Of a stretch of DNA of 64,000 bases, positions 24,541 to 63,352 are shown one piece after another (the first letter of the stretch is position 1; the number at the start of each line of letters is the position of its first letter). The stretch is from NCBI GenBank assembly GCA_973895155.1, contig OZ316891.1, positions 1,665,324 through 1,729,323 of the forward strand. Reading direction: 5' to 3'. This DNA comes from Marsupella aquatica (Eukaryota > Plantae > Marchantiophyta). A program made the position numbers and the translations under genes. The notes under the pieces are model-generated. The model made no database searches. It was not told the origin of the DNA and saw only the letters and a program-made list of their open reading frames with translations.

Positions 24541-24697
24541 TGGGTATTATTGATACCAGCACAAAGTGTGAAATGATATTTCAGGATTCTTGATCCAGCT
24601 TTATTGTACTTGCATCATCCATACCCTCGGCAAGCAGCCAACACACTCCGTAAGCGCCTTTTCTTTGTCCTACAACTTGTTGTGGTTACTTGAGAAC

Positions 24698-26356: not shown

Positions 26357-26540
26357 GGATTTCATAGTTTCATCGTGAATGATAATGATAGATGTCATGA
26401 ACTATTGTCTATTTAATCATGTCATATGAATTAAATGTATTACTCATTTTGCTTCATTGTATTTTGTTATCAATTTTATCTTGAAGGGTGTATGGTGAAT
26501 GAATGCTAAAAATGTTTTTGTTATTGTAGAATCTGCAAGG

Positions 26541-28466
26541 ATGGGAAAATGGGATTTGGAATCCGACGAGGAGGAAAAACCTAAAAAGATTCCATATTTA
26601 TATTTGCAACCTGCTCAGGATTTACACCTTTGGTCTCAGGATCAATACGCTGAAGAAGATTCTCAACCCATAGACGAGGACATTGGAATGAGTAGCAATC
26701 ATGCAGGGCAAAGCATAACCAAAATGGATGAGGACACCAAGGATGTTGAATGGAATATCACAATGCCAAATGTGAAACCTCCTCACAATGAATGGCCCAT
26801 CAACGCCAAAGAATTGGAGATATTGATGCCACTTGTGGAGTTCCAAAAATGGATGAAAATCATTTTTGATGATGAAAATTTATGGGCCACAAGGTCTTGG
26901 ATGCAAGAGAAGTACACAATGTCCAAGGTAACACATGTGGAAATTGGCAAGCATTGGTAACAAAGATTTCAAGAGTATGCTCCAAAGAAAGCGCAAGGCA
27001 AAACAAGCTCGGTTTATCCTCCTTTTCTTCGACTCCTAATTGCTGAATTTGTTCTCAAGTGGAAGGTGGATTACCGTTGGGAAACAGAAGAGGGCAAGAT
27101 GACTCACTCTGTGCATCAGTCTGTCCTGGACATTGCAGGTTTGAAGAACAACAAAAATACTACAAAAGATATGTCGAGTCAAGCAACCAACAAAGGGTCA
27201 AAAAGAAAGATACATGATGTGCAAGACATTCATGCACATCAGAAAGATAAGCCGACTGCACTGGAACGACTCTTCACTAATTCTAAAAGTTTCAGCGCAC
27301 CAAAACATGTTGACAAAACATCAAACATTGCAGCATCTACAAGTAACAATTTACCAAGAAAGTTCACTGGTGTTTTGGATCCAAAGAAAGAATCATTGAA
27401 CATGGAGATTGTGTGCAAGAGTTTGGGCACAGAGATTGGTCATTTGATCGAGAACAATCTCCGCACAAAGTTTGGTCTTGACCTTTGTGAAGCTGGCAGC
27501 ATTGACTACTACAAGTCAAAGTTGCAAGATAATCTTTTGAAGATGAAAGCAATGGAAAAAATGCCCATTCAAAGTGCAACTACTTCGGAGGTGAAGGAAT
27601 ACAAGGTGCAACTGTACGACAAGATGGAGGAGATCGCAAAGCTCAACAAACAACTTGCCCAAAAGGATGGTCAATGTAGTCAAATGAAACAAGTTCAAGA
27701 GGCAGATAGAGTCATTCAGGATTTGAAGAATCAGGTTGCATCACAAGAGGTGATCATAAACAATCTGCAAGAGGAGATCGAGCAAATGAACACTGCTGAG
27801 GTGGATGGTCAGTCAGACAAGGAAAAATCAAGATGCAAGAACTACAATTATATGAACTTGCAAATGATTGATCCTACGGGAGAATCTCATCTTTTTCCGG
27901 ATGTGGAGGAGGATCCAGAAGATGTAGAGAAATTTTTTGACAAGTGGAAGACCGATGAAAGTATGGCCCAATTTGTTCGAGAAAAGGATGGAAGATGTAC
28001 TTGGTGCTTGTATCCATGGGGTCCTGAATCTGTTTCCATTTTGGGAACATGCGGTCACTTATGGCATCATGCTTGCTTATTTCGGTGGATGAAGAAGAGC
28101 CAAAAATATTGGTGTCGGAAACCATTTCATAAACGAGAGTATGAGCAACGAGGTTTGTTGAAACAAATGCCACCAATGGAGACACAGCAAGACACTGAAG
28201 ACATGACTCAAGAGAGTATTGCAATGGCACAGATCGATTCAAGGCCCATTGACAACTTCACAGTTAATGAATACAACTTGTCAGATGGTGACTTTGACAA
28301 TTTGTTATTCAGTGGTAGATTCCAACAGTGGAAGGAATATGCCATGGCCAATCGACCAACAACAGATGAGAAAAACATGCAGCGATCTATTCGTCGCCAT
28401 CGTCGTTGTCAGCAACTGGCAGAGGTGAAAGTAGAAGTGCAAGACAATGAGAACCGAAATGAGTAG
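26541..28466 (+). pseudogene. Coiled-coil plus RING-H2 protein (putative E3 ligase), one in-frame stop, hAT cargo
   Basis: ORFs 26499..26960 and 27066..28466 are in one frame separated by a single TAA (26958-26960); coiled-coil region; CTWC-x14-CGHLWHHAC-x9-YWC RING-H2 pattern with the seventh ligand Tyr (TAT, plausibly from TGT). Confidence 0.8.
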
Positions 28467-28578
28467 ATTGCACACTCAATGTTTAGTATAGCATATTTTA
28501 TTGCATAGGACATGCACAATCCGGCATAGTATATCATAGTTTGTCGTATAGTACTAGCATGTAATACCTAAACAGATG

Positions 28579-31437: not shown

Positions 31438-31494
31438 GATCGAAAACAAGAACTTTACACACAAAGTATCTTCTTATACGTCGCTAAACATAGT

Positions 31495-31890
31495 CACTTA
31501 ATAAAAATTGAATGATTATTTGTTAGTCTTTTGAAGTAACAACAATAAAACGAGAAAAAAAAACTACTGTGAAATATCACATGTCGAGTCAAACTCCAAA
31601 CATGCGCACACGGTTCTCTTTTGTTTTCTGGTTGTTAACATTCCTATCCGACGTATGTGATATCTATAATTTAATGAGCATTTGCCGACATTGTGAAAAC
31701 ATATGAGACAATTAGTGATAATCATGTAAAATATCACATGTCAAGCTTTAGCTCCAAACATGCGTACATGAATGTCAACATTGTCAAAATTTGTTTCACA
31801 ATACCCACAAGTACCACTAAATGTTAAGGGATAAGAAAAAAGTTATTATGCGGATTACCACATGCCGAGTAAAACCTCCAAGCACGCGCG
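31495..31890. repeat. Right copy of internal diverged inverted repeat (partner 24110-24540)
   Basis: See partner; lies directly upstream of the transposase ATG. Confidence 0.75.
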
Positions 31891-32096: not shown

Positions 32097-32900
32097 ACCC
32101 GGGCTTATCTTCCCTTAACCCAGGCCGGGCCTCCCTCCTCCCTCCTCTCACCCCTCCCTTCACCCGGGCCGGGCCTCCCTCCTCCCCCCCACCCGGGCCT
32201 CCCTCCACCCTGGCCGGGCCTCCTTCCCCCCCCACCCGGGCCTGCTCCCCCCGGGCCTCCCTCCACCCGGGCCGGCCCTCCTCCCTTCCCCCACCCGGGC
32301 CTCGTCCTCCTCCCCACCCGGCCTCCTCCCCCCCCCTCCCCGGGCCCCCCTCCACCCGGGCCAGGCCTCCTCCCTCCCCCCACCCGGGCCTCCTCCTCCT
32401 CCACCCGGGCCTCGTCCTCCTCCTCCCCACCCGGGCCTCCTCCCCACCCGGGCCTCCTTCCCCCCGGGCCGGCCCTCCTCCCTCCCCCCACCCGGGCCTC
32501 GTCCTCCTCCCGACCCGGTCTCCTCCCCCCCCCACCCGGGCCCCCTCACCCCTCCACCCGGGCCGGGCCTCCTCCCTTCCCCCACCCGGGCCTCCTCACC
32601 CCCCCCCACCCGGGCCGGGCCTCCTCCCTTCCCCCACCCGGGCCTCCTCACCCCCCCACCCGGGCCCCCCTCCACCCGGGCTGGGCCTCCTCCCTCCCCC
32701 CACCCGGGCCTCCTCCCCCCCCCACCCGGGCCCCCCTCCACCCGGGCCGGGCCTCCTCCCTCCCCCCACCCGGGCCTCCTCCCCCCCCCACCCGGGCCGG
32801 GCCTCCTCCCTCCCCCCACCCGGGCCTCCTCCCCCCCCCACCCGGGCCGGGCCTCCTCCCTCCCCCCACCCAGGCCTTCCTCCACCCGGGCCGGGCCGGG
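32097..32900. repeat. Right GC-rich subterminal array of the hAT (ccacccgggcctcctccccc units)
   Basis: Dozens of cccgggcc-centred units; explains the spurious Gly/Arg/Pro-rich ORFs. Confidence 0.92.
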
Positions 32901-33980
32901 ATTTAAAGCCGGGGCGTAAAGCCGGGGCCGGGTGACGAGAGGTAGGGGGGGCCGGGCCGGGTCCGGGAAGAGGCCGGGAGGAGTTCAGGCCGGGCCGGGA
33001 GAAGTTCGAGTCGAGCCGGGGAATAAAGACAAATATGCGTCAAATGAGAGCATTTCAGGCCGGCAAATGCCGAGTTTACGTGCCGGGCAACTCGGCAAGT
33101 TGCCCGTCACATCAAACCGGGATTTAAAAAGATCTGTGTCCTTATATTGCGCTCACTTTATCGATATTGACGAAGACAGTATATCTTTCCCACGCCCAGT
33201 GCCAAGTTATTAGTAAAGTTACCGTCTGGGTCCCGTGTCCTCCTCTTCTGACGATTCGCGGTTGTCCAAGCATTGACTTGCTACAACTCATGGGAGACCT
33301 AGAATGTAATGAGACAAAAATGGAGGGTGCTCCTGGTTCCTTTAATTTCTGAGACACATCTCTGCGGTCAAATGATCCTTATCAACGCAGCGGCCTTTCA
33401 AGACTGTTTGGGCACAACATGTGCGATCTGGCACCTCTATAAGGGCTTCTGAATCCTCAGGCTTTGGTAATTTAAATTTCCGGACTGTTTGCTATAACAG
33501 GCTGGTAGTGTACTACTGTACTGATGAGGAAAGGACAAAATACAATGCAATAAAAGGAAAGAAAAGAAAAAGAAGTCCTGACATGACGAACTACCATGGG
33601 GCAAGCCTCTGCTAGAGATCTATGATGGACCTTTCAGGTTTGAGCACCCTTTAGCATTACCAAAATCCATTAACTGAAGTGCATAGTGAAAACAAATGGT
33701 GATGATCTTGAGGAAATAGCCTATCCCCAAACATCGGAGCTGCCATCCACGGAGCCATCAACTTAAAGACGGAGTCTCCCAAGGTCAATAGTATGGGGAG
33801 AAAGCTATTTTATGAGATGTGTTACATATTTCTCCTCTCTTCCCATTGTGATGTTACTATGCCCCTGATGCCCTGACACAAATGGTTAGCTACCAAACAT
33901 CAGTCTACATACACGTGTCATCTCATACCTTTGTAACATCATTACATAGTCTTGATAGCAGATGACAAGGCCAATTTAGC

Positions 33981-34311
33981 CCCACTTAAGCTGACGGGAA
34001 AGTTGTCGGCTTGCCGGGCACGTAAAACCGTCAAATGACGACCCCAAAATGGCCAATTTGACATATATTCCTTGCTATTCTCCCAAACTCCCCCGGCCTC
34101 CCGAACCCCTCCCAGACCCCTCCCGAACCCCTCCCCAGCCTCCCAAACCCCTCCCAAACCCCTCCCCAGCCTCCCAGATCCTCCCGAACGCCTCCCCAGC
34201 CTCCTGGGTCCCTCCTCACACCCGGACCGACCCCGATTCTGGGAGACCGGGTTTCAGGTTTTTGGTTTGATGCCCCAAAAAGCCCAGTTTGACAGGCAAG
34301 GTCAAACCGGG
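33981..34311. mobile_element. hAT MITE related to the 9.8-kb element
   Basis: Perfect 8-bp TSD AATTTAGC (33973-33980, 34312-34319); right end caaaccggg identical to the large element; C-rich internal repeats. Confidence 0.85.
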
Positions 34312-38010: not shown

Positions 38011-38608
38011 CTGGGTTTGTACTTGTTGGACAAATAGGGCCATTTGGGGTGACAAATGAATATGTCGCCCTGGTCGATCCCGGCCGAGTGACAGATCAGG
38101 CCGGGAGAAGGGTCGGGGGTTTGGCCGGGTCGGGCCAGGGGATCGGCTAGGGGGGGTGGCGGGTGTCGGGCCGCGCGGTCGGGGGGAAGAGCCAGGCCGG
38201 GCCGGGCTGGGAAATAGCCGGGCCAGGAAGGTTTAGGAGGAGTTCGGGACCGGGCCGGGAGGGTTCAGGAAAGTCTGGGCCGGGGGGGAGGGTCGGGGGT
38301 GTCGGGCTGGTCGGGGGGAGAGCCGGGCCGGGAAAGAGCCGGGCCGGGAAGGGAAGGGAAGGGAGGCCAGACCGGGACAACACAGCCGGGACGGGAATAG
38401 GCAGCCGGGCCGGGAAGGTTTAGGAGGAGTCCGGACCGGGCTGGGAGGGTTCGGGAAAGTCTGTGACCGGGCCGGGGATGGGTCAGGAAGTTTTGGTCCT
38501 GACCGAGGAATATAAGGGAATATTGGACAAATAGGCCATTTTTGCGCAGACAAATTGTCATTTGTAGTGTCGGAAAAGTAGGCATCTTGTCCGACAGTGA
38601 AAACTCGG
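38011..38608. mobile_element. hAT MITE related to the 9.8-kb element
   Basis: Perfect 8-bp TSD GGTTAAAT (38003-38010, 38609-38616); ends ctgggttt / aaactcgg; internal gccgggccggg arrays. Confidence 0.85.
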
Positions 38609-40282: not shown

Positions 40283-43200
40283 CTAATGGTCTACATCAAG
40301 TGTCAAAACAAAATCGTCAAGTGGGACTGGAATGTCCTCTAGGGGGGCTAGCCGATGCGGAGTCACACTAGCACCCATTGTCAGAGATCGACAATAGATG
40401 GCCCGAGCTTGAGCACACTGTAAGGTGACTGAAATGCGTTGGCAAAAGTGCATGATCAAAACAGATAGCTGGGGTCCGGTAGGACCCATCCGGCCATGAA
40501 CATCCCGAGCAGCTTGCCAAAGAAGCCCGTCAAACTGATGATGGAGACGCCCAAATATCTCAAGAGCAAGGGGGAGGAAGCTATCAGATGAAGCTTGTGC
40601 AACATATTTGGCCTCCTTCGTTATTGCTGCTCGTGATGCTGCTGCCCCTGCCGTTGTTGCCGCTGTCCCAATGATGTCTTGGCGCAATGGGTTTGCCACC
40701 ACTACATCTGCCAAAGTACGTTGACGCTCACAAATCATGGTAGGATCCACCCGTAACCACTGTGATGGAGGACTGGGTAACTCAAGCACCACCTCCCACT
40801 GCGCACAGACCAAAGAGCCAGAGAGAACTTGAGCAGTCGCATCTCTCACAACATCGTGAACAAAAATGGTTTCACCTCCCAAACTTTACCGAAGAAGATG
40901 GACACCTGTGGCATCACAAGGCTTCCCACAAGTGCAAGAAGGAGGTAAACCAGCAAGAAGTGGGTGGGGTAAGCCCATACAAAGACGCATGGCTATCGCA
41001 AACTCTGCTGAAGATATCCGCAGGTGAGGAATGATTGGATTGGCCTAAAGCCATCCTCCTGCTCCCTTCCCTCCAGAAGAAAGAATCCGAGCTTGGCCCA
41101 TGTCAGGTGCCTTGGTGAGGATGTTGGAGAGGGTGAAAGCGTGTTGTCCGAGGTCTACTTGAAGACGGACGGGGTCCAAGGATAAAAACTCCTGAAATGA
41201 AGGTAATGCAACTAAGACAGGATCTGGTAATGATGACCGCGCCGCGCGCAAATGAACCTGAAATGGGATGGAACCCTCCTCTACCTCCATGAGAGACGAA
41301 AGTAAAAAAGGTCAATCCTCAGTAAGGAAACGATCTGCCAACAATGAGAAGGCGGCCACCCACGCGCCCAAAAGGCCAAAGGTGCAAGGCGCTCAGTGGA
41401 AGTAAGCCCAAAACCACCCTGAGAAATATGAAGACTGAGCTGTCGACGAAGCCATGAAGATGAGAGCAAAGTACCTAGCCCTAAAAGCGAGGCCACAGTC
41501 TCACGAATGGAGACATCAAACGCTCGGAGGTGTAGATAAAGATCCTTGGTAGGGGGATGTGCTTGAGCCAAATAGGACGCGAGGGGGTGGACGCATCTCA
41601 ACAACAACCCAAATGTTGCCTGAGAATCTGCTAACTTAGGGAGCATAGGAGTAGGGGCTAAGGCAGCCTGTAGAGCGTCAGCAATGAAAGATGAGCAAAA
41701 TGAGACAATCCCGACTGGAGAGCCAAGGACCCAAAGACCGTCGATTGGACGTAAGAAACAAGGGGGAAGCGCAAGATCAGAGGGTAACCCAGCTGGACTC
41801 TATGCACGACTCTTCATAGGCTGAACCCGTAAACCAAGGCCCAACAAATGGGTGAAAAGGGTGGTGAGGGCAAAAGTAACCACAACGGGTGGACCAATGA
41901 TATCGGTGTCATCTGAAAGGAAGGGGAAGATACACAGGGGGTGGGCCGCGGAGGCTTCCCGTAAAGCTGTAAAATGGGCAATGGCAAAAAGAGGCCCACC
42001 CAAAGGGTCACCCTGACGTGTACCTTCTGTAGAGAAAGAGTGGTATACACTCCTATAGAGGTGTGATGACTATAGAAGAGGGGGGCCTTGAGTCCATAAA
42101 AACAACGGACAAAGGGGATAAGGGACTGGATGTCTAGATCCGCCGCCCTCAAACCACAAAAAATTGCTGCCCAAGAAACCGTATTGAAAGCATTAGAGAC
42201 ATCAACCTGGAGGACAACGCAATCAATTAGGTGGAGGTCCAAGGTAGCACGAATACCCACAATAATTGTCTCACAACCGCCAAGAACGCCCACTTCAAAT
42301 TGATGTGGAGAGAGATGATCCGATAGTGCAGAGCAATACTGCGATGAAAGTGTGCAAGACACAAGCCGAAGAAAAACCTCTCCTATAGCTATGGGCCAAA
42401 TACCCGGTGAAGACTTAGCCATGGCCAATAAACGAGAGGCAAACAGCCGGCTGCAATATACTGGCAAAAGGAGAAGAAAACTGGAAAACTAGACTGAGGA
42501 TCCTCGGGGAGGATTAAATCATAAAAATGCTCAAAGACATAGCCAGAGGGACCACCAGCCGTGCAACGCGGGGCATGGAGGAAAGCATAGGTGAAGTGGT
42601 CCCTACTAAACTGAAGATCCTCCTCAGGCTTAAAATCCTCCACGAACAAAGGGAGCTGATCATAGGGTTGCGGATGAAGATCCTGAACGGCCGTCAAGGT
42701 GACCTCGCCAGGGGGGCTGGTTGTTAAGGATTGCTCTTAGTCTTGTGACTCAAAGGTTATGACTCAAGGTTAGTCGTGTATGACCTTGCATATACCACGG
42801 CTAGTGTAAGCCGCTGGTATGTGGTGTTTGCTCATTGTAATAGAGCAACTTGAGGAAGAGAGAGAGCTTGTGTGTTCGACTACTCTGAAGTAAAGTTGGA
42901 GTGTTTGTGTGGACGTAGCCTTGGAGAAGAGGTGAACCACATATGGATTGTGTCGGCTACATGTGCATGGTATGAGTTATGATTGTATCATGATGAAGGA
43001 AGATGTTATACTTCAACACTGGTGTGGTGGGAGAAAGGGCCTGGACAGCACAATGATATTCACCAGCCTGGGGTAAATGACAAGAGCGATGAAGGCATCT
43101 ATGCTCTGGAGGATGAGAGTGGCGAGCTGGGTTAGACAAAGCACGGGCGGTAAAGGAACAGGCTTGAAGAAAGTACTCTTCCTGAAGCTGTTCCCAATCT

Positions 43201-46811: not shown

Positions 46812-47264
46812 TGCCAATTGACTTGAAGTACATTTGTTAAACTTTCATTGCTCCTGTTTTGCTCTATCTACTGTATTTCCTGTCCTACTCATTTGTGCCT
46901 CTAGTCAATACTGTTTTTGTTTGGCTTGGAAATCACTGCCCTGATTATTGTACAATTATACACTTCTGCACGACGTGTAGTTGTAGCGTGCGAGCAGCAA
47001 GTAAAAACTTCATGATACAGGGCCTCGCAACCTCATAGGAGGAAAAAACCCTAAACATAAACCATTTCACTAGCAAACTTAATTCCTAGCTACCCAGAAC
47101 CTTATTTTGAACTATCTTGAGTTTTGTGTCATTTTTTTGTACAGCCCAATTAGCGGGCCAATTAGGGACAACTTTTTGGCTGGCCAAATCAATAGCCAGA
47201 GGAAAGTGAATCCCGGATGGATTGCCATGTTGGACAAAGTTGCTCCCGTGGATCACATTTTGGC

Positions 47265-47439
47265 TGTCGTGATATATAGTATTGAAGCCATAGTGTATCG
47301 AAAACATACAGTCACCGGCAAGGCATATGTGCAAGCTGCTAGCAACCAACATGCATAGAAAAAGTCCAATCACATTCACAAGTGCCAAAAAAAAGCAAAT
47401 GAAGTGGTATGTACGTAGTGGAGGTGTAAACCTCTGTAT
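47265..47439 (-). repeat. Terminal repeat a2 (175 bp)
   Basis: Matches 47801-47975 with about 4 substitutions by eye. Confidence 0.95.
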
Positions 47440-47798
47440 AATAAAAGGCATAAGAGAAACAAGCGTACTGAAATCGAATCAAAAACCGGCGGGATGCCAA
47501 GATTGGCCGGAGGCATCTAACGAATCACTGTGTGAATCTCGTGTACGGAACCGACGAGCACTGTCTGAGCTCTGTCAACAGCGATTCAAGAAGAACTAAA
47601 AACCAACAAAGAAAGACATGCCCTAAGCAAGCAAAGTCCTGGCGTCACACTAACAAGCACATTTGCTTCAAGAACGGCCTAGACTTGCTACAAGAACATG
47701 TCGCTAACTCAGGTAGTACACTAGCCCTAACTACATACCTAGCGGGCATGAGAGGGACATGCCGATGTGCATAAGAGGCACTGTCCCTCGGCATGACA
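47440..47798 (-). repeat. Repeat b2 (359 bp)
   Basis: Matches 56863-57221 with about 14 substitutions by eye, mostly transitions. Confidence 0.95.
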
Positions 47799-47800
47799 AC

Positions 47801-47975
47801 TGTCGTGACATATAGTATCGAAGCCATAGTGTATCAAAAACATACAGTCACCGGCAAGGCATATGTGCAAGCTGCTAGCAACCAACATGCATAGAAAAAG
47901 TCCAATCACATTCACAAGTGCCAAGAAAAAGCAAATGAAGTGGTATGTACGTAGTGGAGGTGTAAACCTCTGTAT
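47801..47975 (-). repeat. Internal repeat a1 (175 bp), preceded on the element strand by a G7 tract
   Basis: Copy of 47265-47439; ccccccc at 47976-47982 is a PPT-like run on the minus strand. Confidence 0.95.
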
Positions 47976-48014
47976 CCCCCCCAGACCACAGCCAAAAGGA
48001 GGGCTGAAGAAAAT

Positions 48015-49614
48015 TCAGGTAGCACGTGGAGCACAGGAAGGGCAAAACCATAACCCTTCTGGCACCTGGGTAAGTTCAGGCCGAAGGCAGAAAAGATGGT
48101 ACCCTCCATTGCAATTGTCACACAGCAGCATCTGGTCAGCATCATCAATTTGCAAACACACCTTGCAAGGGTAGTCCATAGGTGGAATCCAAGTAGAAGT
48201 CACAATGGTGGGATCTAGGTTAGGCAGATGACAAGGGGCGCAATTCTTGGCATTGTCAGCAATTGTGCGCCCATCTGCCCCTTGTAACTCTAGCACTCCA
48301 GACGATCGAATAGCTTTAACCCTGAGAATAGTACGATTGGTAGAGGTGTCCAGGGTGTCGTTAGCTTGCCGCTGCAAGTACACAAAATCTCCCACATCAA
48401 ACTTCCTGACCTTGGGCTGAAAAGTGCCCCCTTGTGTGTGTGCATAACGCAGTGTGTCCCTGTGTTGTGCAATGGCCAAATTCTCCATGGCCACGGGCAT
48501 AACCCTCCTGAATAGGGCAGCCCTCTCAGAGATCACATCAGACCAAGTCACAGCTGAATCCAAGTCCACCACCTGAAGTATGTGAGAAGCAATAGCAGAA
48601 GGTGGAACTGGGTGACGACCAAACAACAAGAAGTAGGGAGAAAAGTTAGACAATGATGCATGTCTAGACATCCTATACCCCATGGCAATGTAGGGTAAGG
48701 CCAGGTCCCAATCCTCCTTGTTTTTGTTGAGGCAAATCTTCCGGAGACCCTTCTTGCATGTCTGAACCATGCGCTCTGCCAAGCCATCTGCCTGTGGGTG
48801 ATCTTGTGATGTCCGGCGATGATCAATGAGGGCCTGATCAAGCAGCTCCTAGAACTCTCCATTAAACTCTGAGCCCTGGTCAGTGAGACATTCTGCACAA
48901 GCTCCAAAGCGGCTGAACTTGTTGCAGGAATGCCTGGCTGGTGCTACGGGAGGTCTTATCCGGCAATGCCACAAGTTCTATCCACTTGGAGAAATGCTCT
49001 ATCATGATCATGATGTAGAGATTACCCCAAGACGTGAGGGGTAATTCTCCAGCCAAATCACATGACCAGCGATAAAACATGCCCTGAATAGGGAGTGGAT
49101 GAAGCGGGGGATGAAGTGTGGGTTGTCGAGATGTGAAGGAAGTCCTCCCCCTATCACACTGTTCACACCGGGCAATAACATCTCGAACCTGGCCATGCAT
49201 GCCTCTCCAATGATAATGAGGGACCAAGAGGTTGTAAGTCCTCTTAACACCAAAATGACCAAGCTCAGAATGTACCTTACGGATAAGGCCAACCCTCTCA
49301 TGAATAGGTGGAACCACCACTTCCCTGTCTGGCAAGCAGCGCACGAGATGATCTCCCTTCCACAAGTAGCGCTTGGACCTTTGCTGAATTCGGTCTCTCT
49401 GGGCAGCAGTAACATGTGTGGGGTACTCCCCATACTGTAGAAATCTCAGAGTGTCGCTGTCCTCCCATATGTCCACCACAGGTTGGTCAATAATATAGCA
49501 TGGCAGCAAAGCAAGATAGGTCGATGCATGAAATGTAGGCAGGATAGAAACCTGGTCAAAATCTTGTCGTGCATTTGAGGAATCATCAGAGGTAATCAAA
49601 GGGCTGTGGGACAT
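48015..49614 (-). pseudogene. Gypsy DDE integrase (frameshifted near 48900)
   Basis: HSELGH...CEQC zinc finger; WSCDLAG; IEHFSKW; LTDQGSEF; HPQADGLAER; SPYFLLFGR. Confidence 0.92.
48033..48167 (-). CDS. PHD finger at the C-terminus of integrase
   Basis: CKVCLQIDDADQMLLCDNCNGGYHLFCLRPELTQVPEGLWFCPSC is a complete C4HC3 PHD in ORF 48015..48782. Confidence 0.95.
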
Positions 49615-49686
49615 AGTGTCAGCATTCTAATGTGTCACACCAGGCCTATGAATTACCTCAAAATCATACTCCTGGAGTATGAGCGC

Positions 49687-51000
49687 TCAACGAGGAAGCT
49701 TGCCAGTAAGCTTGTTGTTGGTCATCAACCACTTCAAGGGCTGGTGGTCGGTGTAGAGAACAAACCTGGTCCCATAGAGGTAGGGCCTGTAATGTATGAC
49801 AGCCCACACAACAGCAAGGCATTCACCCTCATAAGAAGAACAATGACTCTCTGCCTGATTGTTGCTCCTGGATGCATAGGCAATGACGTACTCTTTACCT
49901 TCCTCATCATGCTGGCCCAGAATGGCACCAATCCCAAGGGCACTCCAATCTGTGTGTAGCACAAAGACCTTGTTGAAATCAGGTCTTCTCAGCACCGGGT
50001 ATTCTGAGAGCTTCTCCTTCAAAGTGGCAAATGCTGCCTCAGCATCTGTACTCCATGTCCAAGTCACATTCTTTTTCAACAAAGCATACAATGGGTGTGC
50101 AATGGTACTGAAATCTTTGATGTAGATCCGGTAGTAATTGCACAACCCAATAAAACTCCTCAAAGTGTGAACATCGGTAGGAGTGGGCATTTCCAAGATG
50201 GATACCACCTTGGCCCAGTGAGCCATGGTTCCATTTGGAAGAATGCGATGCCCAAGATATACTACTGATCTGACAGCAAATTCACACTTCTTGGGGTGTA
50301 TCTTTAGGTTCACCTTCTTAAGCCTCATGAATAGCTCCTCAAGGTCAAGTAGATGCTGGTCAAATCCTTTGCTGTGGACCAACACATCATCAATGTAGCA
50401 TTTCAGAAACTCAGCACCTTGAAGAACCTGGTCCATGACTCTTTGAAAGAATATGGGCGCATTCTTCAAGCCAAATGGCATCACCAACCACTCCCATAGT
50501 TGGTTACTACCATGGAAAGCTGTTTTCTTGCGGTCCTTTGCAAGCAGCAAAATCTGGTTAAAGCCTTGCCTTAGATCCACAAGAGTGAAGATGTCTGAGT
50601 CTCCAATGCTGTCAAATAGCTCCTCTGGCCGTGGCATGGGGTACCTGTCCTGGGGTGTGACCAGGTTTAGTGGCCTGTAGTCCCCACACATGCGCTTCTC
50701 TGTCCACAATCTACTGGAATCCTTCTTTGCTGGCATCACTGTAGCTGCTGCAAAATCTGATGTAGATGGCTGAACAAGACCAGCTTCATAGAGCTCTTGG
50801 CATCTCTCATCCACCAGCTGCCACTCATGCTTACTCAAACGGTGTCTCCGCCTGAAGATAGGTGTTTCATCAGCCAACTCAATGGAGAACTGCATAGTCT
50901 TGCACTTACCCAAGTCCTTCATAGAGAAAGCAAACACATTCTCATGCTTGAGGAGCAAATTCAGCAGCTGGTCCTTCTGTCTTTTACTCAGGTGGTTGCC
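49687..51000 (-). pseudogene. Reverse transcriptase and RNase H
   Basis: KRMCGDYRPLN, DLRQGFNQI, KKTAF, MPFGLKNAP, YIDD, LRSFIGLCNYYR; RNase H HTDWS, YEGECLAVV, YTDHQPL; in-frame TGA at 49687. Confidence 0.95.
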
Positions 51001-51359
51001 CATGATGAATGTGTAGTTGGCAACACTAGGAATAGGACCTGATGTACTCGTGCTTGAAGAGCCAGAAGTGCCAGCCTCTCCACTGTCCAAGCTGCTAGCA
51101 TGCTGCTGATAAGGTGATGAGGCCTCTCCAAGGCCTGTTGTATCTGTTGCTCTGGTCTGATCCACACCATGAAACTCAGAAATAATGTCAGCCACATTAC
51201 AAGGGACCTCCTCCCCCCCCCCAACACTTGGACTGAAGTGGTGAGTGTTGGACAGAGGTAAGTGCACCTGGTTTGGATGCCATGTAGCAGCACCATGGAG
51301 TGGTAGGGCTGGAACTCCTGATGCTGGATGAATGTACATCTGAAAAAGGATGCAAGTGA

Positions 51360-52300
51360 CCAGAAGCCAAGTGAGAGCATTAAGATCCATTACCCTGCCA
51401 AGTAAAGCATTTCTGGCTAGCCTGGTGATTTTGGTGTGACATGTAGTACCGGGTTGGAAGCCCATAGCCCGTTCTCTCTCCTCAGGACTAGGTTCATCCC
51501 ATGTACCGGTAGAATGTCGATAAACCAGGCCAGGACCATCACCCTGAAAAGCATGTGCACCTGGAAAGGACACAAATGTAGGCCAAGCAGCACGGGGCTG
51601 TCCAATGGTATTAGCTGGATACCAAGGTGCTGGCTCTTGCCGTGTAACTGGTTGGCAAGAACTGTCAGGATCCAAAATCTGGTCCACTGTGAGGTTAGTG
51701 TCCCTGGATGTGTGCTGAAGAGCTAACTCCAACAAGGAAGGTGGTGCAAGGTTAGTCCAAAAGTTACGAAGACGATGTGCATAAGAACCACAGTGCACTG
51801 CATCAATGAGAAGGGGTGGTCCCAAGTAGTGCTGGACCACATTGAAATCCTCTTTGACCTATGGACGCTGGTCAAACTGAGATGGAGTATTCTCAATGAT
51901 ATAACCAACAGCAGGATAAAGGGATTGAGCCCAGGTGAGAATCTGAACCAATGCTGTGAAAAGGCCAGAATGAGAATCATGCAGTCCAACACCGTGACCA
52001 GTAGCTGAAAACCCTTGGCATTCCCAACCAGCTATGATCAAATCAAGGGAGCCAAGAAGGGTTAAGTGCCGGTGTTGGACAAGCTGGATATCTGGAGGGA
52101 AGAAAGAAAATGCAAACTTCCATGCACTGTGTGGAAACTGCTGGGGAAATCGCTCTGAAAATTCCAGCAGACGGGATTTAGCCACTTGCCTTGCACCTGG
52201 ATCAATGTCCACGTAGATGTACTGCTTCACCACCATGCCAGACTGTAGGAGAGCTTCCAGGCCTGTAGAAATGCCACCAAAAAGCTCAAGCAATGTAAGG
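51360..52300 (-). pseudogene. DNMT3-like C5 cytosine methyltransferase domain within pol (one in-frame TAG at 51859-51861)
   Basis: Motif I LLELFGGISTG, II YVDID, IV DLIIAGWECQGFS, SGLF, VI IIEN, VIII IDAVHCGSYAHRLRNFWTNL, IX ERERAMGF, X LLGRVM; same order and wording as DNMT3 catalytic domains; in frame with RT. Confidence 0.9.
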
Positions 52301-52544
52301 CCATCTGAAGGAGGAGTCCATGTAACTGGTGCGCTCAAGATTGGGGCTATTGGCTGTCCATTGTGCTGCCCAAGGTCTTCAAACTTGCGCAATGCAGCCA
52401 CCAAAGGTCCATGGGCTGCTTGGAGCCGTTGTACCACCTCTGGTTGATGATCCACGTTGCTGGAAAGTGCTGCTATACGTGCAGTAGCCACCTCATCATC
52501 ATCCTCCTCAATCCAATCCTGCAATGGGTGGTTGACATAGGCAG

Positions 52545-53417
52545 CTATGTGCACTGCTTGCAACACACAATGGTGAGCCATAGGTGTATGGGCACCATGC
52601 AAATCAAGTGGAATGTAGCCCAAGTGTGAGCCATCCGTATGCCAATCAACTCTGTAGTATGCATGCTCATGCCAGTTGTCAATGGTAAAACCTGGTGGGA
52701 ACAAAGCCTCCTGGCCAATGAGCACATCATACGTAGTGGCATTGGTAACCAAACATCTGACTGGGAATGCAATCCCTGATCTGTACCTCCATTAAAAGTG
52801 AGAGTAAGTAAAGTAGAACTCTCACCCAACACATCCTCCACAGTGCCACTAGCAGTCCGAATGTGCCACCTGGATTGCTGTAAATGATCAGTCAGCAGTC
52901 CCATCTTCTTGGCAAACTAAATGCCCAATATCATTGGTTGAGCGCCTGTGTCCAGCATGACCACTTGAGGAGTGTGACCCTCCAACTTGACCGCTGAATT
53001 CCTATTGTCAACAATGGCAATGGTGGTGGAAACTGAAGTCCTATCGCTAGGCACCACTTTTGGCAAATGATGAGGTACCTTGTGAAGGGAGTTAGTGTCC
53101 ACGGTCTTTCCACTCAACAGCATAGTCAGGAAAGATGGAGCAGCATGACCAGAATCCAGTGTAGCTCTAGTCACACAATCTGCAGCAATACTGTCATCTC
53201 TACCACTGGAAATTGGTGCTGGGATAGCCAAACCAGTGGAAGCATGTAATGGAGAAGAAGAAGGTCCAGTATGTACATGAGATTGGACCTCCAAAACTGG
53301 TGTCACAGGGGCTGATGAAGAATGCAGTGAGCCCTCTAGCGCTCTGATGATAGCTCTAGCATCCAGCTGTAAATCATGGCAACTGAAAAGTGGAGTGGTA
53401 AGAATCCTTTGTGCCAT
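52545..53417 (-). pseudogene. Aspartic protease region of pol (stop and frameshift)
   Basis: VMLDTGAQ active site; IRTASG flap; YDVLIG closing motif in the next frame. Confidence 0.85.
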
Positions 53418-54937
53418 ACCGGAGGTGAAATGCTCAAGCAGCTAAGGAGAAACAACTCCCTATGAAATGTCAGTAGCACCTGGTGGTGGAATGGATGTAG
53501 CTGCAGCTCTCTCCCCCCTCGCCAACAAGGTGCGCTCTTCAGCAAGGGTAAGGGTAGAGGGGCTGAACTGTCAGTGGTGCCGATGGGTTGCACGTGACCA
53601 GCCGGTTGAGAAGGACTAGCAGAGGCAGGTGACTTGCCTTTGATGTGGGCAAGTTGGGCACGTAGGGACTCAACCTCATGAGTCAAAGACTGGAGTTGAG
53701 TTGCCTGTTCGTTGTGAGCCTCCTTCTGAGCTGGTTGCTTCTGTTGCTGCTTGGGCGATTTGTTGGCACCAAGTGCTTTGCCATTGGAAGGAGGAGCAAC
53801 TGAGGCAATAGGAGCCCTCCTAGCTGGTGGGGGAGTGGAAGCAGGAGCAGGATGAGGGGCCTGCTGGCGTAGCTGCTTCCTCTCTGGGAATTTTGCAAAA
53901 CAAACTGCCTCCAAGTGACCCACTTTCCCGCAAAAATCACAAGACAGATCCTCAGCAACAATATCACATTTATTAGCCTTGTGATTGGGGTTACCACAGT
54001 AGTTGCAAGATGGCAGCATGAAAGCAACATGGGCTGGCTTGGTCTTGGAAGCATACTGTGGCACACGGGAAGGAGTGGCCAGTGTAGGGGCAGCAGCCTG
54101 GTACCTAGATTGCGGTGGACATGCAATACTGGCCTCATAATGTGCATGGGCCAACTCAAGTTTCTTAGCAGTGTCATAGACATTGAGCAGGGTGTAGCTG
54201 TCTCCAAACTCTGAGAATACTTGCTGCAACACTTGCAAATGGAGAGCTGGTGTGCCCTCCAATGCGCAAAGATAGCGATGAGCAGCTTCCAGGTCAGTGA
54301 TGCTTTGGGTGTCCTCCTTCAGCTTGAGAAGTCGGCGATACATCATCTTCAATGTTTCATCGCGCTGCCTCACAAAGGTGGCCAATTGCATGATTTTGTC
54401 AGCACTCTTGATTGGGAATTCCAATTCAACAACCTGGAAAAACTCAGCGACTGGATCAGCAAAGGCAGGAGAATCAATAGTGGGAGAAATGCCTGATGTA
54501 GCCTGTGCCAAGACAGTGGGAGTAACTGGCGCAGTGGTAGGAACTGGAGTAGGAGGGGAAGTGGCAGGAGCAGCAGCATGGGCTGTAATGGCATTCTGTA
54601 AGGCCAATTGTGAGGCTGCCACAATTGCACTGGCATAGGTAGGGTTAGGCAACTGTGTGACAGCAAGCAGCCGTTGAGAGTGCTGCTCATACACATCCAA
54701 AGCCTCATAGTGCACATACCTGGCTAGTTGCTTGAATGCAAAAGCATTGGTGAAATTGCTGCCGTACTTCAACTCCAATTTGTAAATGACAGTGTAGAAA
54801 GTGGATTTGAACTCACGCAAAGAAATAGTGCCTGGCCGCCCGCTGAAGCGCTCAATGCGGCCAGATGAGTGGCTAGCATCCATGCTGTATGTCGGTGAAG
54901 CTGGAACAACCACTAATGCAGAAGGGGTAAATGGCAA
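53336..54937 (-). CDS. Gag with two CCHC zinc knuckles
   Basis: RIERFSG N-terminal motif; CNYCGNPNHKANKC and CDFCGKVGHLEAVC; the C-terminus probably shifts frame at the G-run near 53515. Confidence 0.9.
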   Translation of the reverse strand: MPFTPSALVVVPASPTYSMDASHSSGRIERFSGRPGTISLREFKSTFYTVIYKLELKYGSNFTNAFAFKQLARYVHYEALDVYEQHSQRLLAVTQLPNPTYASAIVAASQLALQNAITAHAAAPATSPPTPVPTTAPVTPTVLAQATSGISPTIDSPAFADPVAEFFQVVELEFPIKSADKIMQLATFVRQRDETLKMMYRRLLKLKEDTQSITDLEAAHRYLCALEGTPALHLQVLQQVFSEFGDSYTLLNVYDTAKKLELAHAHYEASIACPPQSRYQAAAPTLATPSRVPQYASKTKPAHVAFMLPSCNYCGNPNHKANKCDIVAEDLSCDFCGKVGHLEAVCFAKFPERKQLRQQAPHPAPASTPPPARRAPIASVAPPSNGKALGANKSPKQQQKQPAQKEAHNEQATQLQSLTHEVESLRAQLAHIKGKSPASASPSQPAGHVQPIGTTDSSAPLPLPLLKSAPCWRGGRELQLHPFHHQVLLTFHRELFLLSCLSISPPVWHKGFLPLHFSVAMIYSWMLELSSER

Positions 54938-56862
54938 GGAAGTGATAGCAGGCTTCGGGGTAGTGGTGAAGCGACCGCCAAATTGAGCAGAAGGATTGCA
55001 TGGTGTGGGTGCTGTTGCTGTCTGCGGACGTTGTCAAAATTGCTGAGACTCCAATGAAATTGGCACCAACGGTCGTGGATCACTCCGTAAGTGGTACCGG
55101 GGTGTCGGTGGCGATGAGCTGCTACGACTCGGCTCCTCTGCTGACATGCTGCATGCTCACCTGGGGTGCCAATGGAAAAGAAACTGACAAGAAAAATAAA
55201 TGGCAGCCTCAAGGCTAGAAAATTAACCTACAATGAAGCAACGGCGTGAGGCAAAAATGCCGTGGCCTCGATGTGCATACCCGAGCGTGTAGCCCTATGC
55301 GGATTACCCGGCGGTTACCAAATGTCCGGGACCAAATGTCAGCGACTGTGAAGAAATATAATGAAATGGACCCCCTTAAGTGTATACATCGGGGCCCCCT
55401 GTAATTATGCATTGGGCCCGATGTGGACCCGGGAACTGACGGAAGGCGCACATCGACGGAAAAGAAAAATCAGGTGGGGACCGGCAACCGAGCGAGTGTG
55501 CATACACACTCGGGCACGGTGCCCTATGCAGTCGAAGGGAGGTTCTCGCGCGGCGTTTGAGGCAAGTCGACGCCTTGCCGGCTACAACCCACGGATTGCA
55601 GGTCGCGGCAGCTGGGCTGGAAAATGGAAAAATGGGTCTGCAAAATGCGAACGGGGCCCAATGTATATACACATCGGCCCTATGTGGACCTGAGAAATGA
55701 CAGCAGGTCGATCGTCGCGCGGCGAAAAAGTGAGAATGGCCGAAAAAGGGGAAAACGGGACCCAAGGCGAGGCGAGGAAAAAAAACAGAAGAAGCAGAAG
55801 TGGGCCTTAATTGCGCAAGCCCTGCATAGGGCTTCGCGCCGCCCCCTCCTTAAGTCCTTACGAGCTCCCGAAGGGAAGCTACGAGTTCCCCCTTCCCCTC
55901 CTTAATGATTCCTGGTGGGCCTCGTGCCCTGCAGAAGTGTGACTCCCAAGAGGAGGGAGTCTAATTGAATTCCCCCTCCCCTCTTTAATTCAGCATAGGG
56001 CCTCGTGCCCACTCCTTGCGCTGCTGCCTCGGGTCTGTCTCCCCCCTCCTTTAATGCTGCTAAATGTGCTTCGTGCCCTGCAGGACTCCTGAGAAGGGAG
56101 TCGTATGTATTCCCCCTCTCCCCCTCTTTTAATTCCTCATAGGGCTTCGTGCCCTCCTTTCGCTTCCCCCTCTCCTGCGTGGCTGGTGCGCGGCTCCCCA
56201 CTCCCTCCTCTTTAATGCTGAAATGGGGCCTGGCAGCATGACTCCAGAGAGAGAGAGAGAGAGTCGTATGTACTCCCCCCTCCTTACTGCTTCAGAGGCG
56301 CGAAGCTGGCTCGGCAGCCGTGGCCGGGAGAGACAAAAAAAAACGTTTGAGGGGCCCCGAAGGGTCGATGCGAGCGGGGGCTCAGCTCCCTATGTACAGA
56401 CTGCGAAGAGCCGGGGGTGGTAGCAAAAAATGGGCACACGGCCCTATACACTGACAGTCGGGAGGTGGCAGGGAGGGACCACGGCCGGAAACTGCAATAA
56501 TCGGGCCCCAATCGTTGCGCTACGGCCGGGGCAAGTTCACCAGCAGTGTGTGGCCGGGAAAATACCGAAAATGGCCCGAAAAGGTCAAACGTGCACGAGG
56601 GCGCAGTGCCCTATGCAGCAGCCGGAAGCAAGTTTGCAACAGCAGGTCGGCAATCGACGGAGGGGTCGTGGATACACCCGGGAAGGAAAAACTGGGTTCC
56701 AATAGAAGCGTTATGTGTATACATAACGTGACATTAAACCCATAATTTCAACCAGTCCCTGCTCAAAGAAATGGCATCGACTTCGATGGGAATTGTCTGA
56801 ACCAACACGAGCAGCTAAGAAGCACGTCTCCGATTTCCTTCCCCTTACCACAATTCTTCTTG

Positions 56863-57221
56863 AATAAAAGGCGTAAGAGAAACAAGCGTACTGAAATTGA
56901 ATCGAAAACTGGCAGGATGCCAAGATTGGCCGGGAGCATCTAACGAATCACTGTGTGAATCCCGTGTACAGAACCGACGAGCACTATCTGAGCTCTGTCA
57001 ACAGCGATTCAAGAAGAACTAAAAACCAACAAAGAAAGACATGCCCTAAGCAAGCAAAGTCCTGGCGTCACACTAACAAGCACATTTTCTTCAAGAACGA
57101 CCCAGACTTGCTACAAGAACATGTCGCTAACTCAGGTAGTACACTAGCCCTAACTACATACCTAGCGGGCATGAGAGGGACATGCCGATGTGCATAAGAG
57201 GCAATGTCCCTCGGCATGACA
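56863..57221 (-). repeat. Terminal repeat b1 (359 bp), 5' end of the element
   Basis: Copy of 47440-47798; no a-type sequence on either side. Confidence 0.95.
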
Positions 57222-58899
57222 TGGCGGCCCATGGGAGTTTTAAGCTTATAAGTTGTTAATTGTGAGTGTGAAGATCATTTTTAGTTGCCCCTGCAAGACA
57301 ACTAGAGAAGCAGGAGACTTGAAAAAACACAACCTCAAACACAAGCTTGCCTAATATTCCATATTAACACTGAGAATGAAAAAATCTAATAGATTTTAAT
57401 TACCCCTTGGCATACCATGATGAATAACTCAAATAATAATGGCTAAAACTTCAGTGTCACTTTGATGGAAGTGTGGCTTCCCTACTCCTCTAGCACATAC
57501 TCAAAACTAAAAAATATTTGAATTTATGAACATTAAGTTATCCGGGGTAAGTTATTACAATTAAACTCAAATTCTTGGAAATGCGGTCTATGGGGGTTTT
57601 CAAAGACCAACGTTTTGGTCCATGGGAGCATCATTTTCATATTCAGATGGAGCCTAAAAGATGCAATAGAAATATCAAATTTAGCAAAAATCATAAGACA
57701 TTAAGAACCACTCTTGTGATTCTTTAACAATGAATACTCTCCTTGCTAGCAAAAATTCCTACCTATTTGCATCATACAATACCTCCTGCACACCCCAATT
57801 GTTCTCTGAATCAAAGTTTCATCCCTCTCCAGTTGTTGAGGTTGTCCCTCCAGTGTCTACAATTGTGCCTTACATTTGCCCCCATTATACATCTTGGGGG
57901 TAGATATGAAGTTCCAAGTTTTGCTACTAGTGACTTCAGGCTTCATGGCAGAATTATGGCAAGCTCGACCCCAAGCACAAGGCCATGCCTGGACAAGTAT
58001 CACTGCACTTTCAGTGACCCTTAATGTATTCTAAAGTTTTCTGGCATCTGAGACTAGCTAGCTCTAGATGTCCTCCCATCTTGGAGAATAAGACCTTTCA
58101 CTTCAGGAACAATAATAGCAAAGGTGGAAACTGGATTCAGGACAAGTTGGTTACAGGTGGCTGACCAGGATCCACTCCTTGTCCTAAGAGCATCTCCACC
58201 GGGTCCAGCAAATAGCCCTGTAACCTCCATTTAGGCATATGGCGATTCCACATATGCGGGCAGGATGTCCCACTGGCACCCTGCAACCCCTAAACTGATG
58301 GCAGCCCACCGAAAAGTTGCAGACCCTGACCGCCAGATTCATATGCGTTGGCGGTCAGAGAATGTGCCCCCATTTTGACTCCCAGAAGGATCGATGATTG
58401 AATGTGTACACTGGGGTGCAATCTGGCTCAAGCTTGAGTTCCCGCTTGGAGAGTTTCCCGCACTCGACAAATTTTTTTGTGCAAATTTTGCGGGGTGCAG
58501 GTGGGGGTCAGCGAGGAGGGTCTCGGGCCAGCATCCTTCAGACCTGAACAAATATGAGGCAAATTTTTGGGATAGGGGCCACGAGTGCCCGAACGGGTGG
58601 AGATGCTCTAAGATGGTAATTGGTGATCCTCGTACAAGGCTGGTGGGTGGTTTCCGGACCTGCCCTTTGGTTGTCGTGTGCTTGGGCAATATCTCTGTCA
58701 AAAAGAAAGGAAGAAAATATATAGTTCTTATGGACCTAAGTTTGCTCATGTATCACTGCATGCATGCATTGTATGTCTTTAAATAACTAACTGCCTGCAA
58801 ATCTAAATATACACACTTATGTGGAGAAGTTGCTTGTAAGGGCGTGCATAGTAGGCAAGAGAGTCAAGCTGATGGATTATTGATTACTCTATTGATTGT

Positions 58900-62965: not shown

Positions 62966-63056
62966 GAGTCCTGGCCAGTTTGAGCAGTTGTTGCTGGATT
63001 TCACTTTCTTTGTCCCCCAACAGAGAAGAAAATTAACCAAATGAACGATTTCACAT

Positions 63057-63352
63057 CTTGGGGGTTTCACTTCCACAAAAATGACATATCATGTGCGACG
63101 AAGTATATGATCATTTTATTGATTTGAAGGGAAAACTTAAAAATTTTCTGAGAAGAACAATAGGGTCTTTTAAATTCAATTTTGAGATTCATAAGAACAT
63201 TAGGGACCTTATAACCAAATTTTTGGAATATTCCAAAATATTCTAACTTTATAAAGGTTGAAAAATAATATTTTTTTCTTACATTTTAGGGGGTCTGAGG
63301 CCTAAAAACATCGTAGGTGATGGGGAGACATCCATATAGTGAGAGCCCCGAG
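63057..63352 (+). mobile_element. MITE family 2, nested in the long-TIR element
   Basis: tttcacat|cttgggggtttcac...gtgagagccccgag|cttcacat (7/8 TSD); body closely matches 21319-21614. Confidence 0.88.

Follow-up and report, generated by a model that had tools for sequence, protein, structure and literature searches.

A decayed Ty3/Gypsy-type retrotransposon with a DNMT3-like methyltransferase domain, a PHD finger and split terminal repeats in the liverwort Marsupella aquatica

Introduction

We describe a retrotransposon from a 64,000-nucleotide stretch of the liverwort Marsupella aquatica (contig OZ316891.1 of assembly GCA_973895155.1, positions 1,665,324 to 1,729,323; hereafter the window, whose own numbering is used throughout), in which a DNMT3-like DNA methyltransferase domain precedes the reverse transcriptase (RT) and a PHD finger ends the integrase. 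A preliminary description of this locus, made from its sequence, named an element of the alga Klebsormidium as the precedent, and KnitGypsy-Dnmt3 of Klebsormidium nitens is indeed the closest described system; in the available text of de Mendoza et al. (2018; PMC5890265) it has a DNMT3 domain in Pol, purifying selection and repeats of the DIRS type. The Marsupella element is alike in its DNMT3-related domain within a Gypsy Pol, in purifying selection and in DIRS-type repeats combined with Gypsy domains, and integrase-PHD proteins of Klebsormidium are 50-55% identical to its own and share its integrase group. It differs in that the hosts recorded here are land plants, with Calypogeia, Sphagnum and Marchantia among the named ones, in its PHD finger, which goes unmentioned in the main text and three supplement files of PMC5890265, and in the target duplication, self-priming site and junction model set out below, which the text of that paper does not mention either.

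Other described elements share some of these traits. SymbioDIRS-Dnmt3 and the DIRS/PAT/Ngaro elements have repeats in the order A-coding-B-A-B, with DNMT3 in Pol and a proposed methylation of the complementary DNA (cDNA), and the domains of SymbioDIRS-Dnmt3 methylate CG in yeast (PMC5890265, available text); these elements, however, use a tyrosine recombinase, where the Marsupella element encodes a DDE integrase and shows TG...CA ends with a 4-bp duplication. The EpiLTRs of a recent preprint (bioRxiv 10.64898/2026.05.21.726589) are long terminal repeat (LTR) retrotransposons with a DNA methyltransferase and a histone reader, so that writer and reader in one retrotransposon are already in print, but as far as the preprint's accessible part goes they carry DAM, a DNMT4-sister enzyme and a chromodomain, and are called distinct from the Gypsy-DNMT3 elements, which the preprint and Sarre et al. 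(2025) both describe as streptophyte. In Chlamydomonas, Gypsy-7a_cRei (PMC9940879) and REM1 (as cited) combine a Gypsy polyprotein with a PHD finger, and an insertion bias has been proposed; unlike the Marsupella element, Gypsy-7a_cRei has near-complete LTRs on both sides and no DNMT is reported for it in the available text. Published accounts call PHD fingers widespread in retrotransposons and regard them as likely guides of insertion. Gypsy-7a_cRei, CR1 and Chlamys elements are examples, and the portions available report no DNMT for them. The accessible part of Neumann et al. (2019) mentions neither PHD nor methyltransferase, and a literature search that did not extend to the majority of subscription papers, Repbase reports or theses turned up neither the junction model nor any bryophyte or chlorophyte member.

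Results

The element and the state of this copy

The element occupies positions 47265-57221 on the minus strand (9957 bp), has TG...CA ends and is laid out as A1-coding-B1-A2-B2. It is enclosed by a 4-bp target-site duplication, whose upstream copy lies at 57222-57225 and whose downstream copy, the same four bases, lies at 47261-47264. Both junctions are spanned by contigs of run X2 without any difference from the window. The region 48033-52300, to which the preliminary description had confined the element, is only part of this unit and misses the split terminal repeats.

Within the element all features are on the minus strand. The gag-pol coding span runs from 54883 to a pol stop codon at 48015-48017 and begins with gag (53552-54883), which has two CX2CX4HX4C knuckles (53966-54007 and 53900-53941) and no Pfam match. 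The gag-pol linker and aspartic protease follow (52767-53552, protease motif at 52941-52961), with three stops and a frameshift at each end, then the DNMT3-like C5 cytosine methyltransferase domain (51334-52317), recognised by Pfam, structure comparison and the residues of its homologues. The RT (50203-50760, YIDD at 50386-50397; Pfam RVT_1, E 2.6e-28) is followed by RNase H (49690-50040; Pfam E 1.5e-31), stops at 49687-49689 and 49627-49629, and the integrase (48300-49326), which has an HHCC finger (Pfam E 7.7e-14) and a DDE core with an rve match and recognisable D, D and E motifs, and is broken by a frameshift near 48914 and a stop at 48849-48851. The C4HC3 PHD finger reported earlier downstream of the integrase is found at 48033-48167, ending it (Pfam PHD, E 5e-12).

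Compared with unbroken relatives, gag-pol of this copy has seven stops in all, one of them within the DNMT (51859-51861), and three frameshifts, near 53552, 52765 and 48914. The DNMT, RT and RNase H share one reading frame, out of which the protease and the PHD finger have fallen owing to the frameshifts. The domain and its position between protease and RT are thus as first described, but the claim of a full, in-frame DNMT is contradicted by its internal stop and by a protease in another frame; because of these stops and frameshifts, the earlier observation holds for the family but says too much about this copy. The window element is a dead, decayed copy of a Ty3/Gypsy-type retrotransposon with genuine domains.

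The order gag-protease-(DNMT)-RT-RNase H-integrase is that of Ty3/Gypsy elements, the best Protein Data Bank (PDB) match of the RT, by similarity only, is Ty3 RT (E 2e-63), ahead of caulimovirus-type (2e-46) and retroviral (1e-23) enzymes, and the DDE integrase, TG...CA ends and 4-bp duplication agree with the 4-6 bp expected of the group. The element is nevertheless structurally non-canonical, since A-coding-B-A-B takes the place of two complete flanking LTRs. Split direct repeats of this sort are a hallmark of DIRS/PAT/Ngaro elements, whereas the tyrosine recombinase that is their other hallmark is replaced here by rve, the HHCC finger and the DDE motifs. The chromodomain that follows the integrase in chromoviruses was not found in the Pfam scan, and the PHD finger sits there instead. 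With high confidence, then, we take the element for a decayed Ty3/Gypsy-type retrotransposon of the KnitGypsy-Dnmt3 kind. The name Troyka, considered for the three-repeat layout, was rejected, as Troyka has CG...CG ends and a 3-bp duplication, where this element has TG...CA and 4 bp.

The methyltransferase domain

The DNMT motifs stand in unrearranged order from 52290 to 51385 on the minus strand: motif I at 52273-52290, motif IV with GWEC at 52012-52029, motif VI at 51886-51897, motif VIII at 51757-51777 and motif X at 51385-51405. The Pfam check that the preliminary description had proposed returned DNA_methylase at E 5.9e-5, just over its cut-off, beside the PHD match given above; an NCBIfam scan returned dcm only, and below its cut-off. 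Among solved structures the closest by sequence is DNMT3A (E 3.3e-7), with 3C, 3B and finally M.HhaI (0.1) behind it. The fold was modelled on homologue P0108, which is 66% identical (pLDDT, the predicted local distance difference test score, 80), and not on the broken window copy. The top Foldseek matches of this model are DNMT3A/3B (E 2e-17). A separate comparison gives a Z of 28.1 and a root-mean-square deviation of 2.7 over 273 aligned residues, against a Z of 23.7 for M.HhaI, and the model, in matching DNMT3A/3B first, points to a DNMT3 fold. Fold, motif order and the catalytic Cys, Glu and Arg are thus shared with the animal DNMT3A/3B catalytic domain (PDB 6f57, 5yx2, 6kda), while identity to it is only about 23%, Glu-Cys replaces Pro-Cys, and neither a PWWP nor an ADD domain is attached. 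The DNMT3-like identity first proposed is borne out by the DNMT3A match, motifs I to X and the kept Cys and Glu.

Residue counts were made on 158 homologues, with those covering each position as denominator. The catalytic Cys of motif IV is kept in 104 of 106 and the Glu of motif VI in 104 of 109, and the Arg pair of motif VIII is largely kept (90/106 and 84/107). Motif IV reads GWEC in 44, GWPC in 29 and SWEC in 17 of the 106, and the residue before the Cys position is Glu, followed by Cys, in 66 as against Pro in 34, one of which lacks the Cys. Because Glu-Cys outnumbers Pro-Cys among homologues, GWEC must be counted as an old variant rather than as damage; the kept Cys in GWEC had been noticed from the start, and proves to be family-wide.

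Sibling copies came from a metagenome search in which 80 loci, kept from 333 confirmed matches, were used. The preliminary description would have been abandoned had siblings lacked the domain or had it evolved neutrally. Among loci long enough, a protease lies upstream of the DNMT in 60 of 63, an RT downstream in 54 of 56 and a PHD finger downstream in 29 of 31. The ratio of non-synonymous to synonymous substitution (dN/dS) between the window and 72 loci is 0.10 for the DNMT, 0.05 for RT, 0.08 for integrase, 0.12 for gag and 0.23 for the linker; with synonymous sites near saturation, the DNMT value lies below the Ka/Ks of 0.2 by which purifying selection was recognised for the KnitGypsy-Dnmt3 kind, and by this measure the domain is under purifying selection. 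Saturation of its synonymous sites leaves the PHD finger without a value. The stop within the DNMT is private to the window copy, all contigs counted having another base there (X2, n=1; X4, n=5). An active methyltransferase somewhere in the family is accordingly what these sequences would lead one to expect, and we consider it quite likely.

The PHD finger

PHD fingers that read H3K4me3 have a cage Trp two residues before the zinc His, and those that read unmethylated H3 have an Asp after Cys3 and a Pro-x-Gly pocket before a late Trp. Among the 110 complete fingers in 120 homologues, the residue two before the zinc His is Gly in 102, Ala in 6, Pro in 2 and the cage Trp of H3K4me3 readers in none, while Asp follows Cys3 in 103 and the Pro-x-Gly pocket precedes the late Trp in 101. 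The nearest structures are the fingers of CHD4, WSTF, EHD3, ATXR5, BAZ2B and KDM5. The finger thus resembles readers of unmethylated H3K4, and histone reading is predicted. The analogy first drawn with the ADD domain of host DNMT3s is taken from animals; land-plant and algal DNMT3s are described, in the published portions available, as lacking ADD. The PHD finger is fused to the integrase and not to the DNMT, and stays on the integrase in both of the architectures described below. Because of this constancy, and because PHD fingers of retrotransposons are described as likely insertion guides, we read it as an integration tether, which is probable on the sequence evidence.

Terminal repeats and their junction

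Repeat A1 (56863-57221, 359 bp) begins with TG and is 96.1% identical to A2 (47440-47798); B1 (47801-47975) ends with CA and is 97.7% identical to B2 (47265-47439), which also ends with CA and stands flush with A2, a joint found at the same bases in most copies. A polypurine tract of seven G (47976-47982), the same in sibling loci, adjoins B1. At the other end, twelve bases within A1 (57007-57018) are complementary to the end of A1 at the position of a primer-binding site (56854-56865), and are likely the transcript's 5' end acting as self-primer. None of 200 shuffles reaches 12 bases, and the complement measures at least 10 bases in 12 of 30 A copies and 13 in the distant relative L092, with none in L094; the sequences differ among the window, the loci and L092, yet the pairing holds. 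Such self-complementarity is, in the published text available, a signature of self-priming. Because the polypurine tract abuts B1 and the primer site ends A1, the LTR of reverse transcription would be B-spacer-A.

The inserted ends fall inside this putative LTR, at a CA-NN-TG junction. In the window the internal B1/A2 junction (47792-47807) consists of the element's right end, a spacer at 47799-47800 and the element's left end, and is a candidate integrase attachment site. L092 has the same junction, and so do L093 and L094, both of the chlorophyte type. Its spacers (n=17, some insertions counted twice) are GC in 8, AC in 5, GT in 3 and AT in 1; AC, GT and AT are what decay of methylated C makes of GC. 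The full A-coding-B-A-B layout is present in the window and six loci, two B copies in 13 of the 26 loci whose 3' sequence is long enough, and an exact 4-bp duplication in five of eight distinct insertions with both ends readable (the window, L004, L014/L053, L047 and L051; L037 and L077, with one end missing, were excluded). Three contigs, L014, L024 and L053, share one insertion site, where L014 ends in B-A-B and L053 in a single B resembling B2.

Bacterial DNA transposons of the IS3/IS30 type offer a parallel, in which a DDE enzyme works on a circle where the two ends abut with a short spacer between them; in the Marsupella element the circle would instead come from reverse transcription. 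The sequence is as expected if staggered cuts after CA had opened a two-LTR circle at this junction, and integration by way of a circle or an internal junction is the reading we favour by a small margin of confidence.

Relatives, host range and two architectures

The closest named relative is in Calypogeia fissa (85% over 273 residues of integrase-PHD, 69% for the DNMT), followed by Sphagnum compactum (60%), S. magellanicum (58%, with PHD), Marchantia polymorpha (41%) and Closterium; integrase homologues, beyond those of Klebsormidium with PHD, include the chlorophyte Haematococcus. Taken by themselves, these matches make a liverwort or moss the likely host. On these named records of Calypogeia, Sphagnum and Marchantia the range extension to land plants, which had been conditional on the host, is well supported. 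In proteins P0002 and P0003 the DNMT is unbroken within a Gypsy Pol and continuous across the domain joints, and a profile search found 613 clusters at 50% identity (E up to 1e-30).

Two architectures are seen, with the DNMT before RT or between RNase H and integrase (Haematococcus; L093, L094). The 58 proteins with both RNase H and integrase have the DNMT between them in 23, before RT in 2, and none visible in 33, most of which begin shortly before RT, with the DNMT possibly in an upstream open reading frame (ORF) as in L092. In L092 (3-6632) a gag-protease-DNMT ORF and an RT-RNase H-integrase-PHD ORF lie in the same frame, divided by a single stop; with read-through, the DNMT would be produced in amounts equal to gag. 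Of 15 proteins matched by the DNMT alone, most are sized like the first ORF of L092. The contigs L092, L093 and L094 and protein P0136 are eukaryotic retrotransposon sequences in bacterial metagenome-assembled genome (MAG) records, where binning contamination is likely.

A quick integrase tree of 133 rows splits into 41 and 92 (Shimodaira-Hasegawa-like approximate likelihood ratio test, SH-aLRT, 99). All named streptophytes are in the smaller group, as are all four proteins whose DNMT precedes RT; the named chlorophytes are in the larger, together with all 53 proteins whose DNMT is flanked by RNase H and integrase. A FastTree of 154 DNMT domains, made without an outgroup as no host DNMT3 stood among the 150 representatives listed, gives the same split except for P0286, mislabelled by a spurious protease motif. 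The two architectures may reflect one DNMT capture with relocation or two captures. A named Klebsormidium DNMT is absent among the matches listed, while the Klebsormidium integrases group with the window.

Origins outside the eukaryotes were considered and rejected. A single query found no relative among viral contigs, an alignment query gave only weak methyltransferase matches (11 loci, E 3e-6 or weaker), and of eight prokaryote-genome loci five are weak and three are retrotransposon contigs inside MAG records.

Abundance and decay

In run X2 the single-copy flank contigs have a depth of 16-26 and the element contigs about 1200-1330, a depth that is not a copy number; runs X6-X13, whose shares are small, are left out of the analysis. 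The two repeat pairs (A1/A2 and B1/B2) together differ at 18 of 534 bases. The family is real and recently abundant. We classified 43 differences between the window and its high-depth siblings (32 from 40 listed rows of 714 and 11 from 19 rows, leaving out minority, duplicated or low-depth-leader rows), of which 33 are losses of the C-to-T type in the window: 19 in CHG, 8 in CG and 6 in CHH. The CHG excess (p 5e-6) fits decay under plant host methylation. The observed/expected ratio (o/e) of CpG at codon boundaries in the coding region is 0.17, against 0.46 in the window's other transposon ORFs (p 4e-4).

The long 5' leader (54884-56853), judged by CpG o/e and contig depth, is rich in GC and CpG and little shared among copies. 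Across 55332-56867 the contig depth is far below that of the rest of the element in runs X1-X3, and internal repeats lie at 55895-56283; the leader seems subfamily-specific.

Other features of the window

A hAT-like unit at 24134-31889 lies between inverted repeats of about 380 bp that are 71% alike, with transposase pieces on its minus strand (DUF659, hAT dimerisation) and ORFs for a 594-aa protein kinase and a 501-aa RING-finger protein on its plus strand; it is possibly a DNA transposon with a kinase and a ubiquitin ligase as cargo. GC-rich tandem arrays surround it at 23480-23753 (plant-telomere-like CCCTAAA units), 32098-32917, 34100-34250 and 38100-38490. Decayed ORFs resembling a non-LTR retrotransposon are found at 40283-42488 (weak RVT_1, E 0.0014), a foldback-like element at 10352-16287 has nested inverted repeats enclosing palindromic 178-bp and 88-bp tandem arrays, and a dispersed repeat of about 280-300 bp, 77-88% alike, recurs at 19394-19670, 21318-21614 and 63056-63352.

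Discussion

Our best overall explanation, to which we give a probability of about 0.55, is that this is an element of the KnitGypsy-Dnmt3 kind whose active relatives methylate their own cDNA, use the PHD finger to steer the integrase to chromatin with unmethylated H3K4, and integrate through a circle. The transcript would start inside A1 and self-prime reverse transcription on the 12 bases ending A1, and with plus-strand synthesis starting at the polypurine tract the true LTR would be B-spacer-A. Joining a two-LTR cDNA end to end would create the flush A2/B2 joint, and if the integrase then nicked each strand of the internal CA-GC-TG junction, beside the primer site, after its CA, ordinary recessed CA ends would result together with the permuted A-coding-B-A-B layout. 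The protease may free the DNMT inside the particle, where it would methylate cytosines of the cDNA, probably in CG as befits a DNMT3, and the methylated cDNA might then pass as host-like DNA or survive until integration. The PHD finger would travel with the integrase as a targeting module and would be no substitute for the ADD of animal DNMT3s. That the element's own new cDNA is the substrate of the methyltransferase is somewhat better than an even proposition on the sequence features at hand.

Several observations weigh against this explanation. The domain of KnitGypsy-Dnmt3 gave no methylation in yeast, a result its authors term inconclusive (PMC5890265, available text), and the Pro-Cys dipeptide that marks the DNMT3 family is replaced by Glu-Cys here and in most relatives. 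The dN/dS values are only rough, because synonymous sites are near saturation (pS, the proportion of synonymous differences, 0.72), the ratio among the loci themselves is 0.42, and the DNMT is free of stops in one of 72 loci (L004). Coding CpG depletion, which de Mendoza et al. (2018; PMC5890265, available text) applied as a test for self-methylation, is ambiguous here and can be explained by host methylation, and CpG is undepleted in repeat A (0.77), the leader (0.82 over 55200-56860) and the intact-looking L092 (0.82), so that blanket self-methylation is not visible. The minimum-energy RNA fold of the region does not contain the self-priming pair (z -1.2). Thirteen of the 26 loci have one B or none, which may be due to recombination or assembly collapse (L053 versus L014), and three of the eight insertions lack an exact duplication (L046 has 3 of 4 bases, L013 and L040 none). 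The opposite opening, A-B-A-coding-B, is found in none of 24 loci and no upstream A is preceded by B, so that the integrase must pick one of two identical junctions, a choice that is unexplained.

The same layout could have arisen without a free circle, if the junction were cut in a linear two-LTR cDNA with host repair or if copying were DIRS-like. These routes yield an identical final sequence, could explain the use of only one of two junctions and sit easily with the single-B forms, but most copies have a flush A2/B2 joint at one and the same place, which is less expected of post-insertion repair; direct support exists for neither route, and we hold them for the less probable, if serious, account. 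The preliminary description went further on the enzymes, proposing a self-contained writer and reader, with new cDNA methylated in advance and integration or methylation steered by the state of the H3 tail. As a single unit, a DNMT-PHD complex would direct methylation to the new insertion or to nearby unmethylated-H3K4 chromatin much as an animal ADD does. The finger does have the features of an unmethylated-H3K4 reader, and in chlorophyte-type relatives, where the DNMT directly precedes integrase-PHD (the 23 of 58 proteins above; L093, L094), a single DNMT-integrase-PHD product is possible. In the window's lineage, however, the PHD finger tails the integrase, with RT and RNase H as well between it and the DNMT, and in L092 a stop codon also puts the two in separate ORFs. 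A retrotransposon protease is moreover expected to cut the polyprotein. The DNMT has shifted position or was acquired twice, with the PHD finger constant on the integrase, PHD fingers occur in the elements without reported DNMT cited above, and plant DNMT3s lack ADD; coupling of reader and writer in this lineage is doubtful and such a unit unlikely.

It is also conceivable, with a somewhat lower probability again, that the DNMT domain is kept for binding and not for methyl transfer, coating or shielding the cDNA or the junction or acting as a decoy for host methylation factors. The Glu-Cys of 66 of 106 homologues, the inactivity of the Klebsormidium domain in yeast and the absence of CpG loss from the repeats, the leader and L092 would suit such a role, against which stand the conservation of the catalytic Cys, Glu and Arg residues across very distant relatives, a preserved motif I for binding S-adenosylmethionine and the activity of related retrotransposon DNMT3 domains (PMC5890265, available text). 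Chance capture is quite a different matter, since the broken state of the window copy and of nearly all loci would fit a host DNMT3 fragment or nested insertion drifting neutrally in one copy, with tandem or nested insertions giving the odd ends, but dozens of loci have the domain at this position and in this frame, its dN/dS is 0.10, hundreds of distant clusters carry it, and one target duplication encloses the whole unit. We regard chance capture as highly improbable.

Taken at its widest, the explanation we prefer would describe a Gypsy clade spanning the green lineage from chlorophytes to liverworts and peat mosses, whose self-primed two-LTR circle is methylated by its own DNMT3, opened by a DDE integrase at a palindromic CA-GC-TG and guided by a PHD finger; we put this forward tentatively, as more speculative than its parts. 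Two-LTR circles are usually regarded as dead ends. A DDE integrase using an internal junction would, if confirmed, be a different integration route, the circle would be the true integration substrate of an LTR element, and carriage of a methyltransferase would be linked to circular intermediates, as in DIRS; the likely integration at the circle junction is the most interesting open point about this element. As they lack two flanking LTRs, such elements are likely to be missed by programs that search for LTR pairs. The known range of DNMT3-bearing Gypsy elements, until now a single alga, comes to include land plants and chlorophytes, and the question of why a transposon carries its own silencing enzyme can now be tested in Marchantia, Sphagnum or Haematococcus.

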